DNA from: Heyndrickxia shackletonii
GTDB taxonomy: Bacteria; Bacillota; Bacilli; Bacillales; Bacillaceae_C
Direction: 5' to 3'
Length of the DNA stretch: 32,000 nt
NCBI RefSeq assembly: GCF_001420715.1
Contig: NZ_LJJC01000006.1
Location: forward strand, 522,770 to 554,769
Shown here: in pieces, positions 5,450-29,704 of the stretch
How positions within the stretch are numbered: the stretch's first letter is position 1
Layout: each line of letters begins with the position of its first letter
Program-made: the position numbers and the translations under genes
Notes under the pieces: model-generated
What the model was told of the DNA's origin: nothing
Seen by the model: the letters and a program-made list of their open reading frames with translations, nothing else
Databases searched by the model: none

Positions 5450-6724
<1,275 letters not shown>

Positions 6725-6813
6725 GTAAAGTCCTGTTTTACACTATTTAAGTGAACTTTCGAACTGTTTAAGTATGAATTCACGCGGTTCATTGAAGGAC
6801 TTACACAAAAATG

Positions 6814-6845
6814 CCGGACAAGGTTGTTGTCCGGTGTTTTTCTTC
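6814..6845 (+). terminator. Intrinsic terminator of the pur operon
   Basis: 8-bp GC-rich stem ccggacaa (6814-6821) / ttgtccgg (6827-6834), loop ggttg, then tail tgtttttcttc. Confidence 0.75.
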
Positions 6846-7114
6846 TATTCAAGTAAACTTCCTATCGTTTGGAGTGTTTTAATTTTTTCATAGGAGATAA
6901 AAAATACTTGTTAGAAAAGAAATGGTTAGAGGTAATGATATAAATTTTAAAACTGGACGTGCTTTCCCCTTTCCTTGTGGGGGTTTTTTGTATTGATAAT
7001 TAATTTTTATTCTCCCATTCTCCACTAATAGACAATAGGTTATTAAAACATTACAATTATAACAATCATACTTTTGTAATATTCAAACTACTGTGACTAA
7101 AGGGGTAGATTACA

Positions 7115-8362
7115 TTGTTAGCTGTAGCAAGTGATTTACTATTTAACTTACTGGTGATTCTTATCACGATGATTGTGCACCAATTTTGGATTGAAAGTAA
7201 ACCAAATTGTAAGCTTGTCATAAAATATTCCATTTTAGTCACATCCGGATTAGCAATTTTTATTTGTATGGTGTTTTCTTTTTACGAATATGAAGGTGTG
7301 CGCTATGATTTGCGACGGATACCATTATGGTTCGGTACTATTTATGGGGGACCAATTGTTGGATTTGTTCTTTTAGTACTTACTAGTGTTATTCGATTCA
7401 TACAAGGTGGAACAGATGTATATTCATCGATTATGAACACCGCACTGATGTTTTTTTCGACTGTTATGATTACTCCATTATATTTTCGTTTAGGAACCTA
7501 TAAGAAAATAGTTTTAAGTACATTTATGAATATTTTCTTTTCATTCCTTGTTTTAATAGCGTTCACTTTTCTTCATCATGATTCATTTAAAATAGATTAT
7601 TGGTTCGAATTTTTAATCATCAATGCAATTGGAATCATACTGGTCAGCCTATCAGTTGAAATGATTCAAAGCAATTATGAATGGCGAATGAAGGTGATCT
7701 ATGCTGATAAATTAGATGTGGTAGGTCACCTAGCAGCTGCGGTTAATCATGAAATCAACAACCCTTTAACGACTATTCGGGGACTGATTCAACTTGTTAA
7801 AGAGGACCCCGGCCTTACAGTAGAAAAGGAGCAAACCTTTTTACAGTTGGCATTAGAGGAAGTGGATAAAGTGAACCATATAATAAAAGATTATTTGACT
7901 TATGCGAGGCCGTATCCCACAACAAATGAGGTATTTCAACTGGACGAAGTACTGCATAATTCCATTAATATTGTAAGGCCTTTAGCGGAGATGGAAGATG
8001 CATTGATAGTAATGGGTGATACTCCAGCCTGCTGCTTAATGGGGGATCCGAAGCAATTAGTTCAAGCACTTGTAAACCTATTAAAAAATAGCATTAACGC
8101 AGTAAAAAAAGGGGGCAATATCGAATTAAAGGTGAAGGTAAAAAATAAAGAATGCTATATTTACATAATAGATAATGGAATCGGAATGGATAAAGCGTTG
8201 CAGAAAAGGCTTGGAGAACCTTACTTCACAACAACAAGTAGGGGTACTGGGCTTGGACTTATGGTTGTCTATAGGATTGTCGATAGTATGAAGGGCGAAA
8301 TAAAAATAGACAGCAGGCAAGGCGTAGGAACAAAGGTTTTACTAAAGTTGCCAATCCTATAA
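7115..8362 (+). CDS. Orphan membrane sensor histidine kinase (5TMR-LYT-type N-terminal domain, then HisKA and HATPase_c)
   Basis: TTG start preceded by AAAGGGG. The N-terminal ~190 aa are polytopic and include YDLRRIPLWFGTIYGGPIVGFVLLVLTSVIRFIQGG, which resembles the LytS/YhcK 5TM receptor signature. H-box is LAAAVNHEINNPLTTIRG, N-box is LLKNSINA, and G-boxes are IDNGIGM and GTGLGL. No response regulator gene lies nearby. Confidence 0.85.
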   Translation: MLAVASDLLFNLLVILITMIVHQFWIESKPNCKLVIKYSILVTSGLAIFICMVFSFYEYEGVRYDLRRIPLWFGTIYGGPIVGFVLLVLTSVIRFIQGGTDVYSSIMNTALMFFSTVMITPLYFRLGTYKKIVLSTFMNIFFSFLVLIAFTFLHHDSFKIDYWFEFLIINAIGIILVSLSVEMIQSNYEWRMKVIYADKLDVVGHLAAAVNHEINNPLTTIRGLIQLVKEDPGLTVEKEQTFLQLALEEVDKVNHIIKDYLTYARPYPTTNEVFQLDEVLHNSINIVRPLAEMEDALIVMGDTPACCLMGDPKQLVQALVNLLKNSINAVKKGGNIELKVKVKNKECYIYIIDNGIGMDKALQKRLGEPYFTTTSRGTGLGLMVVYRIVDSMKGEIKIDSRQGVGTKVLLKLPIL

Positions 8363-18711: not shown

Positions 18712-19310
18712 TTGTTTGATCAATCTCCTTTTCAATGTAGGATGGAATGGGGCGCACGAGGTGCAAGAGAAGCGGCAGAACGGAATCGGTGAAGCTTGGT
18801 AATCCAACCCTTTCACCTGTTACCTTCAATCAAACTCACAAACACAAAAAATATGTTTTATGTTCTTTGAATGGTGCTCTTTGCTCATGGGTTGCCGCGA
18901 AAGTTCCTGCGCTCTTAATTGGCAGCCTATTGAATGCCTCCTCCGTCGCGACTTACGCTAGTAAGCTACAATCACAAACTAATACGGATATTACAGTAAT
19001 CTCATGTGGAGAGCAGTGGGAAGATGTTTTCGATAGGGAAAATAAGCTGCGGCCTGCTATGGAGGATTATTTAGGGGCAGGGGCTATTTTATCTAAACTA
19101 AATGGAGAGAAATCTCCAGAGGCTGAGCTTTGTGCAAGTGCTTTTAAAAGTGTTGAAGAAAGAGTGCAAGATCTCATTTGGGATTGTGGAAGTGGAAGGG
19201 AATTAAGATTAAAGGGCTTTGAAAAAGATGTTCTCCATGCTGCTCAGATAGATGCTTTTAAGAATGTTCCTATTTTAACAGATTCCTATTTTATTAATGC
19301 AGAGGTGTAG
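18712..19310 (+). pseudogene. 2-Phosphosulfolactate phosphatase (ComB) family gene, disrupted by an internal deletion and frameshift
   Basis: Frame 1: RBS GAGTGAGGTGA, then TTG 18712 gives LFDQSPFQCRMEWGARGAREAAERNR with stop TGA 18790-18792. The homology continues in frame 3 (track ORF 18747..19310) from KLGNPTLSPVTF...LNGALCS...GSLLNASSVA...ISCGEQW...LRPAMEDYLGAGAILSKL...SPEAELCASAF...GSGRELRLKGFEKDVLHAAQIDAF..VPIL. The DVLSFST-type segment expected after AAER in intact family members is missing. Confidence 0.6.
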
Positions 19311-20785: not shown

Positions 20786-21190
20786 ATGAAATTTTATATA
20801 GCTTCAAGTTTTCAAAATGTAGAGACGGTAAATGCCCTTTCTAGTAAACTTGTCGAAAATGGTTTCCAGCAAACTTATGATTGGACCCAAAATGAAAAAT
20901 CTGTAGGAATAGAAGAACTTAAGGAAATTGCGATAAAAGAGAAAGAAGCTGTTATGGAATGTGAACTCTTTATTCTCCTTTTGCCGGGCGGGAAGGGAAG
21001 TCATACAGAGTTGGGAATTGCCTTGGGCTCTGGTGTAAAGAGTATCTACATATTTGCTCCGCATTCTGAAAATAAAAAGGACAGTTTAGCAACGACGTTT
21101 TATCATTTACCGGAAGTGCAGATATTTTGCGGGTCGATGGGGGAGTTTGTGGATAAGATTTTAAAGATTTTGGATAATAAAAAAAGATAA
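20786..21190 (+). CDS. Nucleoside 2-deoxyribosyltransferase-fold protein (NDT/DNPH1-like), function unknown
   Basis: 134 aa. It begins MKFYIASSF (beta1 of the flavodoxin-like NDT fold), and CELFILLLPGGKGSHTELGIALGSGVKSIYIF matches the D/E-x-vv-ll...G-(S/T)-x-x-E-x-G-x-A motif that carries the catalytic Glu. Confidence 0.6.
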   Translation: MKFYIASSFQNVETVNALSSKLVENGFQQTYDWTQNEKSVGIEELKEIAIKEKEAVMECELFILLLPGGKGSHTELGIALGSGVKSIYIFAPHSENKKDSLATTFYHLPEVQIFCGSMGEFVDKILKILDNKKR

Positions 21191-21212
21191 CCATGAAGTT
21201 ATCTTTTTTTAT
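21178..21212. terminator. Bidirectional intrinsic terminator between the plus-strand operon and the minus-strand peptide gene
   Basis: Stem agataac (21185-21191) / gttatct (21198-21204), extended by an A6 run on the left and a T7 run on the right. Either strand reads a stem followed by a U-tract. Confidence 0.75.
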
Positions 21213-21215
21213 TAA

Positions 21216-21398
21216 TCATAGTTCAACTGAAAAAGCGGAGGCACTATAAGTAGAGAAAAGACGTGGTTCTTTTTCACCGATTGCTACATTTTTAGTATCT
21301 GAACTCTTATCATTATTATTTTGCAAAGTTTGAGATGTAACGAATGCTCCACTCATAAGTAATGCACCTATCCCTAATGATAATATAATTTTTTTCAT
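21216..21398 (-). CDS. Secreted 60-aa pro-peptide, candidate signalling-peptide precursor for the adjacent RNPP regulator
   Basis: A strong RBS AGGAGGG sits 6 nt before the ATG and begins only 11 nt after the regulator stop. Sec-type signal peptide is MKKIILSLGIGALLMSGAFV. The remainder is hydrophilic (QNNNDKSSDTKNVAIGEKEPRLFSTYSASAFSVEL). Confidence 0.65.
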   Translation of the reverse strand: MKKIILSLGIGALLMSGAFVTSQTLQNNNDKSSDTKNVAIGEKEPRLFSTYSASAFSVEL

Positions 21399-21409
21399 GA
21401 TTTACCCTC

Positions 21410-22675
21410 CTAAATATGCGTGATTTGTTTATATGAGAAGTTGACAAGCTTATAATATTTGGTAGCATTTTTATATTTATGTAAATTTTCAAAATGGCTT
21501 GCTAAAAACTCTGCATATACTGTCAACTTTGCATAATCCTTTTGTTCCTCTAAATAGGGAATAAATTCTTCGACCATCATTTTCTCAAATTTTTCGTGTT
21601 GTTCTTCAATCATATATAAAAATGCTCTTATTTCGTGATAAAACATTACATGTTTATCTTTACCATCTAAATCAATCCATTTGAGACCTTCAGAAATTCT
21701 TTGTTTAGCTTCTTTAAAATAACCATTTTGGTAATATTCTTTAACTATAGTAGTTAGGGCCGAAAGACGGTCTTCTAATAATGATTCGTCTTCATTGATA
21801 ATCATATCTAAATGATCAATTGCTAAATTAGTATCACCTTGTACGGAATACAAATAGCCAAGATTTAAGTGTGTTAATTGAATAATATCTTTATTATTTG
21901 TATGCTCAGCTAATTGTTTAGCTAATTGGTAATTTTTTATTGCCTTTTCATGATTGTGAATGCGTCTATAGGAAATACCCAGTATCAAATGGCATTCTGC
22001 ACAACGTGAAAAATGATAAATCTGTCTATATAAGTCCAAAGCTTTATATGCGGCTCTTAATGCTAACGATGTAATCCTTAACTTACTATATGTTAGTGCT
22101 AATGAGTATTCCAAATCAGCATTTTCTTCTTCGGAAACATCAAGATGTGCTATAAAATCTTCAGATAAAGTATAAAATTTAAGAGCCTCATTATAATCTT
22201 CTTTTAAATAATAGTAGTTCCCATTAAATTTATTCCAAAAATACTTTTGCTCAGTTGTAAAAGTATTGCTGAAATCTTTTAAATGATTAATTTGTTCAAA
22301 TGCAGGATCTAGTTTTCCTAGTTTTAAATAGTATCTTATCAAATGAATTTTTAATAGAATTTGCAATTCAACATCTTCTATAGTATTAGTTAATTCATTT
22401 ATAATGTTATACTTCTCTTTTAACTTCTCAACATCAGTACATGACAATAGCAATCGAAACCATTCGTGACATAGTGCTTTTGTTTCGTCATCGATTTGTC
22501 TGTTAATTTCTATGCCCAGCCTTAGGCAAAGGAGTTTGATGACTTCGTCGTTTGGTTCGATTTTACCGTTTTCAATTTTTGATAGGTATGAAATTGATAT
22601 GATTCCTTCGGCTAGCTCTTCTTGCGTCAAGTTTTGTTTGATTCGATTCAATTTAATAATTGCACCAATGTTCAT
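21410..22675 (-). CDS. RNPP-family transcriptional regulator (N-terminal XRE HTH plus TPR-like repeats; NprR/PlcR-like)
   Basis: 421 aa. The HTH is IIKLNRIKQNLTQEELAEGIISISYLSKIENGK. The remaining ~350 aa are helical repeats with TPR-like spacing (EALKFYTLSE, ALRAAYKALDLY, KAIKNYQLAKQLAE, NLGYLYSVQGDTNLAIDHL, EAKQRISEGL, ATKYYKL). RBS is AGGTGG, and a TATAAT (plus 22696-22701) lies upstream. The gene is clearly more AT-rich than its neighbours. Confidence 0.8.
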   Translation of the reverse strand: MNIGAIIKLNRIKQNLTQEELAEGIISISYLSKIENGKIEPNDEVIKLLCLRLGIEINRQIDDETKALCHEWFRLLLSCTDVEKLKEKYNIINELTNTIEDVELQILLKIHLIRYYLKLGKLDPAFEQINHLKDFSNTFTTEQKYFWNKFNGNYYYLKEDYNEALKFYTLSEDFIAHLDVSEEENADLEYSLALTYSKLRITSLALRAAYKALDLYRQIYHFSRCAECHLILGISYRRIHNHEKAIKNYQLAKQLAEHTNNKDIIQLTHLNLGYLYSVQGDTNLAIDHLDMIINEDESLLEDRLSALTTIVKEYYQNGYFKEAKQRISEGLKWIDLDGKDKHVMFYHEIRAFLYMIEEQHEKFEKMMVEEFIPYLEEQKDYAKLTVYAEFLASHFENLHKYKNATKYYKLVNFSYKQITHI

Positions 22676-22773
22676 ATATTAACCACCTAGAATATATTAT
22701 AGCTTAAATATTATTTAAAGTGGTAATAATAAGAAAATTCCCGAGAGAAATTATTTATTTTTCATTTAAATGC

Positions 22774-22803
22774 TATGCAGGGAATGATATTATTCCCTGC
22801 ATA
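22774..22803. promoter_or_regulatory. Perfect 12-bp inverted repeat with a 6-bp spacer, upstream of the RNPP regulator
   Basis: tatgcagggaat gatatt attccctgcata. No U-tract follows on either strand, so it is not a canonical terminator. It lies ~100 bp upstream of the regulator ATG and ~50 bp downstream of the mini-ORF stop. Confidence 0.5.
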
Positions 22804-22852: not shown

Positions 22853-22978
22853 TCATACTGATACTTTCACTTTTTGAAGATTTGAATCTTTTTTATCATT
22901 CAGCAGAATATCAATTTTGTAAATTAAGGAATCAATGTCTCTTTTTGTAATCTTCGTTGGGGTCTTTTTCTTACGCAT
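22853..22978 (-). CDS. 41-aa basic mini-protein (below the ORF-track cutoff), hypothetical
   Basis: On the minus strand, AAGGAGGAG, 6 nt (ttataa), then ATG gives MRKKKTPTKITKRDIDSLIYKIDILLNDKKDSNLQKVKVSV and stop TGA (plus 22853-22855). It has the same orientation as the regulator and lies immediately upstream of it. Confidence 0.45.
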   Translation of the reverse strand: MRKKKTPTKITKRDIDSLIYKIDILLNDKKDSNLQKVKVSV

Positions 22979-23282
22979 TATAACTCCTCCTTACAAATTT
23001 TTTTGCTGGGTATAACTTCTTATTGTTATCATAACACACTTTATAGGACAATTAACTTGGGAAAATAACATGAAATATAGAGCAAAAAATACTCATTTTC
23101 TTTCAAGTTTTCCTAAATGAAACACAAAAATCAAGAAAATAGATGACATTTTTCCTATGATTTAATGAAAGTGTAAAAAAATTAATGCAACTGTAACTTC
23201 GGTCGTATATATTTTTGCATTTTTCAATAAATGGCGTAGCCCAAATGTCTTGCGGAAAATCTTTTTTGTAGCATATAACAAA

Positions 23283-28555: not shown

Positions 28556-29704
28556 ATGAAAAAGTGGTTACCGGTGCTCCTAACTGTCATTTTAACGGCG
28601 GGTTGTGCGCCCCATTTTAGTAAGCAGGATCAAATTGTACAAAAGAAAAACGATAAAAAGGAAACAGCGATAGTTCCAAATTATCAAATTTCCAATCAAT
28701 ATTACCGAACTATTCTTCCATTTAAGCCAAGTAAATCAAGAGGACTAACGGTAAGCAATTTAAATACTCGCTATGATATAGATGAGTTTGAAACAGGTCT
28801 AATGCGTGTGGCTCAGAAACAATATTCACCAAATGATTATTTGTTTCAGGAAGGCCAATATTTAGATAAGAATACAGTTGTTTCTTGGCTTAATCGGAAA
28901 TATACAGCTAGTCAATTAAAAGCGCAAAAATTAAAGCCGGCCGATAATCTTGGATTAAATCCAGTTGCAAGCGGCAAGGATGCTGCAAGTACACCAATTT
29001 ACTTAGCACATATTTTAGAACAGGATTATTTAATTAAGAGTAATAAAAATACAGTTAAGCTTGGTGGAGTAGTAATTGGACTTGCCTTGAATTCTGTCTA
29101 CTATTATCAAAAACAGCAATATGGTGCTACTTATGATAAAACGATTAGCCATGCGCAAGTAGCGAGTCATGGAAAAAGTATTGCTCAGGAAGTAATTAAA
29201 AGGCTTCGCAATATTAGTGGATTGAAAAATGTACCAATTACAATTGCTCTATATGAGCAAAAGGGAACAGATTCTGTCGTTCCTGGGAACTTTTTTGCCT
29301 ATACAACGGTATCTAATGGAAGCACATCTATCGATAATTGGAAAACGGTAAATGAAAAGTATTACTTGTTTCCATCAGATCAAGCGACGAAGGATTATCG
29401 TGATGACTCTCAATCATTTAGTAATTTTAAAGACGATGTGGAAAAATACTTTCCAAATTATAATGGTGTAGTTGGCCGTGGACTGTATGAAGATGGGCAA
29501 TTAACGAAATTAAACATCGAAATCCCGATGCAGTTTTACGGACAATCTGAAGTAGTTGGCTTTACCCAGTATGTTGCTGGAATAGTAAGTGACTTTCCAG
29601 ATCATATATCTTTAGAGATTAGTGTAACTTCCGTAAATGGTCCAAAAGCACTTATTGTCCGAGAACCGGGTGAGAAAGAACCATTTGTTCATATTTACGA
29701 TTAG
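28556..29704 (+). CDS. yerH: CamS-family lipoprotein (YerH-like)
   Basis: Lipobox MKKWLPVLLTVILTAGC. 382 aa. The position after ligA matches B. subtilis yerH, and the composition is that of a CamS-like secreted protein. Confidence 0.75.
   Translation: MKKWLPVLLTVILTAGCAPHFSKQDQIVQKKNDKKETAIVPNYQISNQYYRTILPFKPSKSRGLTVSNLNTRYDIDEFETGLMRVAQKQYSPNDYLFQEGQYLDKNTVVSWLNRKYTASQLKAQKLKPADNLGLNPVASGKDAASTPIYLAHILEQDYLIKSNKNTVKLGGVVIGLALNSVYYYQKQQYGATYDKTISHAQVASHGKSIAQEVIKRLRNISGLKNVPITIALYEQKGTDSVVPGNFFAYTTVSNGSTSIDNWKTVNEKYYLFPSDQATKDYRDDSQSFSNFKDDVEKYFPNYNGVVGRGLYEDGQLTKLNIEIPMQFYGQSEVVGFTQYVAGIVSDFPDHISLEISVTSVNGPKALIVREPGEKEPFVHIYD

Follow-up and report, generated by a model that had tools for sequence, protein, structure and literature searches.

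Among the relatives of the Rap proteins that bear a helix-turn-helix (HTH) domain, NprR is, to our knowledge, the only one to have been studied well, and almost all of that knowledge comes from the Bacillus cereus group. Surveys separate NprR from Rap by the rule that a Rap-like match together with an HTH makes an NprR, and report the NprR subfamily in 21 genera, including Virgibacillus (Felipe-Ruiz et al., PMC9765709). Receptors from Sediminibacillus and Virgibacillus that join an HTH to tetratricopeptide repeats (TPRs), 421-426 aa long and with a peptide open reading frame (ORF) 15-24 nt downstream, have been filed as "subfam_05_NprR", at 25-30% identity to the NprR of B. thuringiensis (PMC10075063, supplementary file 4). 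Here we describe a cassette of this layout in a 32,000-nt stretch of the Heyndrickxia shackletonii genome (contig NZ_LJJC01000006.1; the window), in which a regulator gene (21410-22675, minus strand; 421-aa ORF with HTH and TPRs) is followed by a 60-aa propeptide gene (21216-21398, minus strand). The cassette is very probably a chromosomal quorum-sensing module of the NprR type within the RRNPP family, thus of a known kind, consisting of a peptide-sensing transcription factor and the secreted precursor of its signal. The propeptide gene is translationally coupled to the regulator gene, and both are conserved together across Bacillaceae.

The TAG stop codon of the regulator is overlapped by the GGAGGG ribosome-binding site (RBS) of the propeptide gene; direct reading of the sequence places the stop codon and the 11-nt intercistronic spacer with this RBS at 21399-21412 (minus strand). 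Both the RBS and the short gap are kept across loci. The two proteins are identical to KQL51430.1 and KQL51429.1, which are annotated merely as hypothetical or "HTH domain-containing". The propeptide starts with an MKK n-region, followed by a 17-residue uncharged hydrophobic stretch (residues 4-20), a hydrophilic pro-region, a conserved core, and a variable tail. The Sec-type signal peptide would cover approximately residues 1-18/22, and could be cleaved by signal peptidase I after residue 16, 18 or 22, as judged by hydropathy and the -3/-1 rule; the protein contains no Cys and is therefore not a lipoprotein. The Phr and AimP signal-peptide models matched it weakly, below their cut-offs (AimP E=0.043). 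All of these elements (the HTH-TPR ORF, the 11-nt gap, the strong RBS, and the same-strand 60-aa ORF with the features of a Sec-type propeptide) lie where a preliminary description of this DNA had placed them, and the cassette is AT-rich as it had said, with a GC content of 0.30 versus 0.38 in the rest of the window.

We collected relatives by scanning one genome per species, which gave at least 215 matching stretches, and fetched 80 loci; counts out of 81 include the window. An ORF of 42-99 aa that has an RBS and encodes a signal peptide (MKK start, hydrophobic stretch) starts 7-29 nt downstream of the regulator in 67 of the 81 loci; the pairing of regulator and propeptide is therefore not chance. 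Among the 14 loci without a counted ORF, two end at contig ends, one (L080) has a disrupted regulator frame, and 11 are true absences, found in divergent relatives (Oceanobacillus sojae, O. jeddahense, O. oncorhynchi, Aquibacillus, and Radiobacillus; loci L053, L059, L060, L062, L063, L065, L066, L070, L071, L073, and L075). Six of these 11 also lack the promoter motif described below. Three observations concern the sample itself. In L078 (Tigheibacillus jepli), a frameshift within 6001-7276 splits the regulator into 328 and 99 aa and leaves the peptide ORF and the promoter motif intact; this is probably a recent pseudogene. Virgibacillus chiguensis has three paralogous regulator-peptide pairs (L056, L067, and L076) with differing cores, and the promoter motif is found solely at the pcrA-linked L067. 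L061 and L080 are titled "Roseburia sp. 1XD42-34" yet contain a Bacillaceae-type cassette (beside pcrA in L061), and probably come from a mislabelled or contaminated assembly.

The regulator has the NprR architecture, an HTH fused to a Rap-like domain. Pfam models place HTH_3 at residues 7-57 (E=7e-13) and TPR_1/TPR_12 at residues 226-290. The closest solved structures by sequence are RapH (E=4e-16, residues 69-411), where the best match in the Protein Data Bank (PDB) is the RapH-Spo0F complex (3q15), and NprR (E=1e-11, residues 59-411); PlcR is absent from the PDB sequence matches. An AlphaFold2 model built on 47 relatives (pLDDT 90) is all-helical, with an XRE-type four-helix HTH (residues 1-58), three Rap-like N-terminal helices (63-118), and paired TPR helices to residue 420. 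In a Foldseek search of this model against the PDB, ranks 1-35 are solely Rap or NprR (E of about 1e-9 to 1e-6), and the best superposition is with apo NprR (5dbk_B; target-normalised TM-score 0.83, root mean square deviation 3.4 A), so that the Rap/NprR-type TPR superhelix foreseen in the preliminary description is recovered. PlcR is a weaker match (E=9e-7; TM-score 0.40 query-normalised, 0.57 target-normalised), and AimR is not among the top 50 structural matches. Alignment of the family profile with NprR without its HTH by hhalign gave a probability of 99.3% (E=1.2e-20, 344 columns, 20% identity). Of the three classes originally proposed (NprR, PlcR, and AimR), NprR is thus the one borne out by fold and profile, and PlcR and AimR match less well. 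The 20% identity to NprR is below the 30% naming cut-off of RRNPP_detector, and comparable proteins stand in its NprR cluster at 25%. We therefore place the regulator in the NprR subfamily of the published surveys. Since those surveys already class such Bacillaceae receptors, the cassette does not fall outside the known families; no experimental or descriptive work on its pcrA-linked clade was found in the searchable literature, nor any description in searchable papers of the E-P core, pcrA linkage, promoter element or 41-aa ORF reported below, or of H. shackletonii in this connection.

We compared the peptide site with that of NprR, using the residue roles given with the NprR-NprX structure (PMC3763537) and two alignments, by HMMER and by hhalign, that are consistent with each other. 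Asn275 of NprR, the peptide-backbone contact conserved in all RNPP proteins (PMC3763537), corresponds to Asn271, which is invariant in the 47 relatives. Tyr193 corresponds to an invariant Tyr190, Trp167 to Phe/Tyr161, His201 to Lys198, and Glu241 to an invariant Arg238. The equivalents of the tetramer-interface residues Tyr223 and Phe225 (Tyr220 and Phe222) are both invariant, and that of the dimer-interface residue Tyr410 (Tyr408) is conserved. Arg126 of NprR, which reads the sole conserved side chain of NprX, an Asp, together with the peptide C-terminus and is essential for activation (PMC3763537), corresponds in the family consensus to Gly120, an equivalence that rests on sequence alignment within a loop. 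At the site of the NprX Asp, after the Pro of the conserved core, the peptides here have S, T, P, G or R, and an Asp is seen in only 1 of 67.

Comparison of the receptors with their peptides revealed covariation at Lys198. All 45 peptides with a Glu directly before the Pro are paired with Lys198, versus a different residue at position 198 in 13 of the 22 receptors whose peptides have other residues there (His, Gln, Asn, Thr, and others), with eight residue kinds seen (Fisher p=2e-8, uncorrected for phylogeny). We report Lys198 alone because it is homologous to a peptide-site residue of NprR; a mutual-information scan over all columns was dominated by phylogeny. A contact between this Glu and Lys198 is a reasonable inference from the pattern. 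It is the core of the propeptide, rather than its C-terminal tail, that covaries with Lys198. This covariation, with the invariant peptide-binding Asn, also bears on whether there is a signalling pair at all. A rival reading is that the small ORF encodes a secreted or membrane peptide with no link to the regulator, whose TPRs would sense something else, and the 11 relatives without a peptide ORF speak for it; we nevertheless give this explanation hardly any probability, given a pair kept with translational coupling in 67 of 81 loci and a peptide residue that varies with a receptor residue homologous to the NprR peptide site. In fold, sequence, conserved partner, and receptor-peptide covariation, the locus thus agrees with the original proposal of an RNPP-type regulator with a cognate secreted pro-peptide.

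Which part of the propeptide is the mature signal can be predicted from its family. The core reads [G/M/S]-[E/D]-x-[E/H]-P-[S/T/P/G/R]-[I/V]-[F/L]-S across the family, with an invariant Pro, and GEKEPRLFS in the window. We predict the core, not the tail, because of tandem repeats, natural C-termini, core conservation, and the NprR/NprX precedent. Tandem core copies are found in six lineages: two in H. camelliae and in Weizmannia, three each in Sediminibacillus halophilus, Terrihalobacillus, and Terribacillus halophilus, and six in Sediminibacillus terrae. Three tandem-repeat propeptides (L004, L068, and L072) stop exactly three residues past the Pro, as EPRVL, QPGAF or EPSIF, and in L072 (S. 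terrae) just "RY" stands between two consecutive cores. In the diverged alleles of H. sporothermodurans described below, the nine core codons show five synonymous changes versus one conservative K/R change, while the signal peptide, pro-region, and tail vary freely. Repeated mature peptides, up to six copies, are a feature of NprR-type propeptides (PMC9765709), and the NprX signal, SKPDIVG, is likewise internal (PMC3763537). The mature signal is therefore probably a 7-8-mer that ends at Phe48 (...EPRLF); the codons of G41-F48 (GEKEPRLF, with EKEPRLF equally possible) are at 21255-21278 (minus strand). We consider it quite unlikely that the signal is instead the variable C-terminal tail, STYSASAFSVEL, with the core as a processing site. 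In PlcR, Rap, and AimR systems, the mature peptide is indeed the C-terminus of the propeptide (PapR, Phr, and AimP; PMC9765709); tails differ between alleles, as specificity determinants often do, and many end in an aromatic residue. However, three lineages have propeptides with no tail, two consecutive cores of S. terrae leave room for only two residues between them, the covariation with Lys198 involves the core, purifying selection acts on the core (which is retained between H. sporothermodurans alleles although their synonymous divergence is saturated), and NprX itself is internal.

The kinship with RapH raises the possibility that the module mainly controls sporulation, with the peptide-free regulator binding Spo0F, the peptide relieving this binding, and transcription being secondary, an arrangement compatible with an NprR-type quorum-sensing module. 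Apo-NprR and Rap proteins bind Spo0F, the best sequence match is itself a RapH-Spo0F complex, the Rap-like N-terminal helices are present, and the hosts are spore formers. Trp72 (RapH W17, NprR W79) and Tyr220 are invariant, and Glu184 lies beside the position of NprR E188. The residues of NprR that contact Spo0F are Asp107, Tyr118, Glu188, and Tyr223 (PMC4970707); in the alignment, Asp107 corresponds to Asp101 (a Ser in most of the relatives) and Tyr118 to Leu112, Glu188 falls into a gapped stretch next to Glu184, and Tyr223 is retained as Tyr220, so that about two of the four contacts are kept family-wide. In addition, Val102 takes the place of the catalytic Gln47 of RapH. The HTH is conserved more strongly than any other part of the regulator, with 100% identity even between alleles that have diverged elsewhere, and this speaks for a role of DNA binding. 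On balance we regard sporulation control as the main role as doubtful, though a Rap-like second function may exist.

We also looked for the DNA that the regulator might recognise. The recognition helix of its HTH (S-x-S-Y-L-S-K-I-E-N) is invariant among relatives, so a shared operator is expected. An 8-mer, TTTCCCAA, is found upstream of the regulator in 71 of the 81 loci, inside the consensus aAcTTTCCCAATATGAAT; in 58 of these 71 it precedes a TGnTAnnnT extended -10 element by 27-28 nt, and half of all its copies in the 1.04 Mb of fetched DNA fall within that one 250-nt interval. The element spans approximately -42 to -28, a stretch with only a poor -35 hexamer. In the window, this family-wide promoter (23028-23064, minus strand) has TTTCCCAA at 23057-23064 over the -35 region, TG at 23035-23036, and TATGAT at 23028-23033 as an extended -10; the motif precedes the regulator by 388 nt and forms part of the promoter of the 41-aa ORF. 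The motif is not enriched in the window as a whole (4 found vs 3 expected). Some 49 nt before the motif lies a distal element, AGGAAAAC..TGAAAG (23100-23114, minus strand), which corresponds to ACTTTCC in inverted orientation and is kept in four Heyndrickxia genomes. Across the family, 60 of 71 loci have GGAAA at -52 to -49 relative to the motif (background 0.011 per bin); the distal GGAAA(G/A)T is the reverse complement of ACTTTCC and is often duplicated, with TTTCC-N7/8-GGAAA in 36 of 71. Motif and peptide gene tend to occur together (both in 65 loci, motif only in 5, peptide only in 2, neither in 6; p=4e-5, phylogeny uncontrolled).

NprR-NprX binds DNA centred on the -35 region of its target promoter PnprA (PMC3763537); by this precedent, we read the conserved ACTTTCCCAA over the -35 of the cassette promoter as the best candidate for the operator of the regulator, which would imply positive autoregulation. 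No published NprR DNA site for comparison was found in the searchable literature. In metagenome contigs, the composite pattern is followed 85-96 nt downstream by a homologue of the regulator in eight contigs, and a ninth (L103) holds a partial homologue; no further targets were found there, and the remaining matches are chance ones in unrelated contigs (for example, fungal). Covariation between HTH and operator was considered as a test of autoregulation and is uninformative, the recognition helix being identical in loci without the motif.

Closer to the regulator, a proximal promoter region (22696-22739, minus strand) contains TATAAT at 22696-22701 and a block, TTTTCTTATTATTACCACTT, at 22718-22737 that the alignment shows to be kept in four Heyndrickxia genomes. 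Within the same region, AATTTTCTTATTATT (22725-22739, minus strand) resembles the consensus of the CodY box, agreeing with it by eye at 12 of 15 positions. A 30-bp palindrome or hairpin (22774-22803; 93% complementary), kept in H. camelliae only, lies between the 41-aa ORF and the regulator, and is possibly a partial terminator.

The 41-aa ORF upstream of the regulator (22853-22978, minus strand), which the preliminary description had listed among the neighbours of the cassette, is more than a bystander. The Lys-rich ORF has a strong RBS, is the first gene after the conserved promoter, and thus stands between that promoter and the regulator; it is kept in H. camelliae (95%), in two other Heyndrickxia genomes (56-64%), in five H. 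sporothermodurans strains, and in Weizmannia, whose counterpart shares the core KITK[R/K][D/E]ID.LI.K[I/L]D. Because it is conserved downstream of the promoter, we regard the cassette of Heyndrickxia and Weizmannia as a three-gene module, in which expression from the conserved promoter would begin with the 41-aa protein. It is annotated as hypothetical at NCBI and has no family in Pfam, NCBIfam or PHROGs. In the Virgibacillus-type arrangement, there is no 41-aa ORF and the conserved promoter abuts the regulator.

Taken together, these features suggest how an NprR-type module of this kind may work. The propeptide would be exported and its signal peptide removed, the pro-region would be trimmed on both sides to the 7-8-residue (G)EKEPRLF, and an oligopeptide permease would re-import the peptide. 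In the TPR groove, its backbone would be held by Asn271 and the Glu before the Pro would pair with Lys198. Binding probably switches the oligomeric state, as in NprR, through interfaces whose equivalents (Tyr220, Phe222, and Tyr408) are conserved, and this switch would let the invariant HTH bind DNA and activate transcription. The putative operator, ACTTTCCCAA over the -35 of its own extended -10 promoter plus an inverted GGAAAGT about 50 bp upstream, would make the regulator positively autoregulated, and in Heyndrickxia the promoter would first transcribe the conserved 41-aa protein.

The cassette is vertically inherited in a conserved chromosome region of many Bacillaceae. The window starts with pur genes, a histidine kinase, adenine deaminase (yerA), a DUF3048 protein (yerB), an iron-siderophore ABC transporter, and catalase; its middle holds a truncated ComB-like ORF, an APH-like kinase, a GNAT protein, a 134-aa ORF, and then the leftward cassette (peptide, regulator, and 41-aa ORF); and it ends with rightward pcrB, pcrA, ligA, and camS, followed by malate synthase. 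In 74 of the 80 fetched loci, across genera, pcrA is at most 6 kb from the regulator. In Heyndrickxia and Weizmannia the cassette lies between yerC and pcrB, divergent from pcrB, which it adjoins in every locus examined; a second arrangement, seen in Virgibacillus, Sediminibacillus, and others, has the order camS, aldehyde dehydrogenase gene, cassette, gatCAB. Every one of the 76 full-length loci has a cassette poorer in GC than the flanking DNA, with a mean deficit of 8 points, so that AT-richness is a trait of the family and not a sign of recent import. Only the block beyond the peptide gene (catalase to the ORF resembling a nucleoside deoxyribosyltransferase, or NDT) is variable, being common solely to H. 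shackletonii and H. camelliae. The pcrB-pcrA-ligA linkage and the uniformly low GC are at odds with the strain-variable slot and horizontal acquisition that had been suggested. The lack of an adjacent protease, toxin or phage target had been noted correctly: a protease is encoded neither in the 32-kb window nor in the annotated surroundings of the relatives, and no toxin, phage, integrase or transposase gene adjoins the cassette in the window or in the examined contexts.

A recently acquired mobile or phage-derived (arbitrium-like) module in such a slot is, on this evidence, very improbable. It could draw on the GC deficit of about 8 points, a match of the regulator to a phage Rap-like family (PHROG phrog_5208, E=7e-29), the far-side genes shared with H. 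camelliae alone, and the exchange of alleles by recombination within H. sporothermodurans. Against it stand the position beside pcrB and the linkage to pcrA, the low GC seen in every full-length locus, the missing phage, integrase, and transposase genes, and the absence of AimR from the top 50 structural matches. A phage or arbitrium origin was likewise rejected as a candidate, there being no phage genes near, and the PHROG match of the regulator being only to a Rap-like family.

As to the other features of the window, a perfect 17-bp AT-rich inverted repeat with A/T runs on its flanks (21175-21214; 100% complementary, 6-nt loop) is likely a bidirectional terminator common to the propeptide gene and the convergent 134-aa ORF; a consensus terminator scan missed it because its stem is poor in G-C pairs. 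An Rfam scan of the window (1-32000) found no family at gathering score. The neighbours on the peptide side are as first described (APH-like kinase, GNAT, and 134-aa ORF). The 134-aa ORF (20786-21190, plus strand) has a weak likeness to nucleoside deoxyribosyltransferase or CMP N-glycosidase (PDB 4jen, E=0.006; phrog_12607, E=2e-4), so that the "NDT-fold" label is plausible and thinly supported. The ComB-like 2-phosphosulfolactate phosphatase ORF (18747-19310, plus strand) is without approximately the first 55 profile residues, overlaps the start of the kinase, is missing in H. camelliae, and may be a gene remnant. The product of camS (28556-29704, plus strand), in the same conserved block as the cassette, belongs to the family of the enterococcal cAM373 pheromone-precursor lipoprotein, which is probably coincidental.

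Variation within a species was seen in four H. sporothermodurans strains (L086-L089). Their PcrA, PcrB, small ORF, YerC, and YerB are 98-100% identical, and the HTH of the regulator is 100% identical; from codon ~135-235 on, the regulators share 82-85% protein and 62-84% DNA identity, with dS of 0.5-1.4 and dN/dS of about 0.1. The propeptides are 43-67% identical, and their cores differ only by K/R. The divergence forms a sharply bounded island whose breakpoints vary by strain pair, which indicates that these receptors are old alleles moved by recombination, as at other pherotype loci. Co-divergence of receptor and peptide as pherotypes is unsupported, the receptors diverging at a dN/dS of about 0.1 around a core in which only K and R alternate.

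Several observations weigh against an NprR-type quorum-sensing module as set out above. We infer secretion, processing, import, binding, and DNA recognition all alike from sequence and models. Eleven divergent relatives lack the peptide gene. With Arg126 replaced by Gly120 and no conserved Asp in the peptide, the activation trigger must differ from that of NprR. Loci with and without the motif share the same recognition helix, so that HTH and operator do not covary, and another factor could bind the motif; searches with the promoter elements in the window and in metagenome contigs found no regulon member. Finally, the receptors of H. sporothermodurans diverge around a near-constant core, and so do not simply track peptide specificity. 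It is possible, and we suggest it tentatively, that the loci linked to pcrA form a branch of the NprR/Rap lineage with a function of its own, which combines a separate peptide code, a two-site operator (GGAAAGT ... ACTTTCCCAA), the 41-aa output, and old alleles. In this reading, an acidic-x-acidic-Pro motif read by Lys198, and possibly by the invariant Arg237/Arg238, would replace the Asp-Arg126 pair; the operator would be dedicated and autoregulated; the 41-aa protein would be the first quorum-controlled output in Heyndrickxia and Weizmannia; and receptor domains would persist within a species as old, recombining alleles. Since the NprR trigger is absent, the clade could show how peptide recognition and activation were rewired in this radiation. 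It is widespread (at least 215 stretches in species-representative genomes), vertically inherited, and easily recognised, and it offers testable predictions in a defined mature peptide, a proposed pair of contacting residues, and a putative operator. For Heyndrickxia and Weizmannia, whose spore formers include agents of food spoilage and probiotics, the cassette is a likely density-sensing switch.

Among known systems, the arbitrium pair AimR-AimP shares the order of regulator then peptide, and the 41-aa ORF may be compared loosely with its small output gene aimX; however, aimX is downstream whereas the 41-aa ORF is upstream, and the cassette is chromosomal, set in the core genome (pur, yerA/B, and pcrB-pcrA-ligA-camS) with no phage genes. 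PlcR-PapR similarly combines an HTH-TPR regulator with a downstream peptide that is secreted and re-imported, but PlcR is only about 285 aa long with five TPRs and is a weaker structural match, and the PapR signal is a C-terminal heptapeptide. The Rap-Phr systems (RapH 3Q15, RapF, RapI, and the Rap of phage phi3T) provide the best matches to the TPR domain and also have a Sec-exported propeptide downstream; unlike the regulator described here, Rap proteins lack an HTH and have Spo0F or ComA as their targets, Gln47 is Val102 here, and Phr signals are C-terminal penta- or hexapeptides.

The closest likeness is to NprR-NprX of the B. cereus group (4GPK, 5DBK). Both regulators have an HTH, Rap-like helices, and a TPR superhelix, at nearly the same length (421 versus about 423 aa); both are followed directly by a Sec propeptide gene whose signal is internal to the C-terminal part, with a Pro and then hydrophobic residues (SKPDIVG versus EKEPRLF). 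Asn275, Tyr193, Tyr223/Phe225, and Tyr410 have conserved counterparts here, both systems include propeptides with tandem repeats, and the candidate operator overlaps the -35 region as the NprR site does at PnprA. The differences are an identity of only about 20%, Gly120 in place of Arg126, an acidic-x-acidic-Pro in place of the conserved Asp, a fixed site by pcrB-pcrA-ligA with no adjacent nprA protease gene, the extra upstream 41-aa ORF in Heyndrickxia and Weizmannia, and Spo0F contacts that are only partly kept. The surveyed NprR-subfamily systems (RRNPP_detector; Felipe-Ruiz et al. 2022) have the same receptor-peptide layout as the cassette, and are recorded in bulk catalogues.

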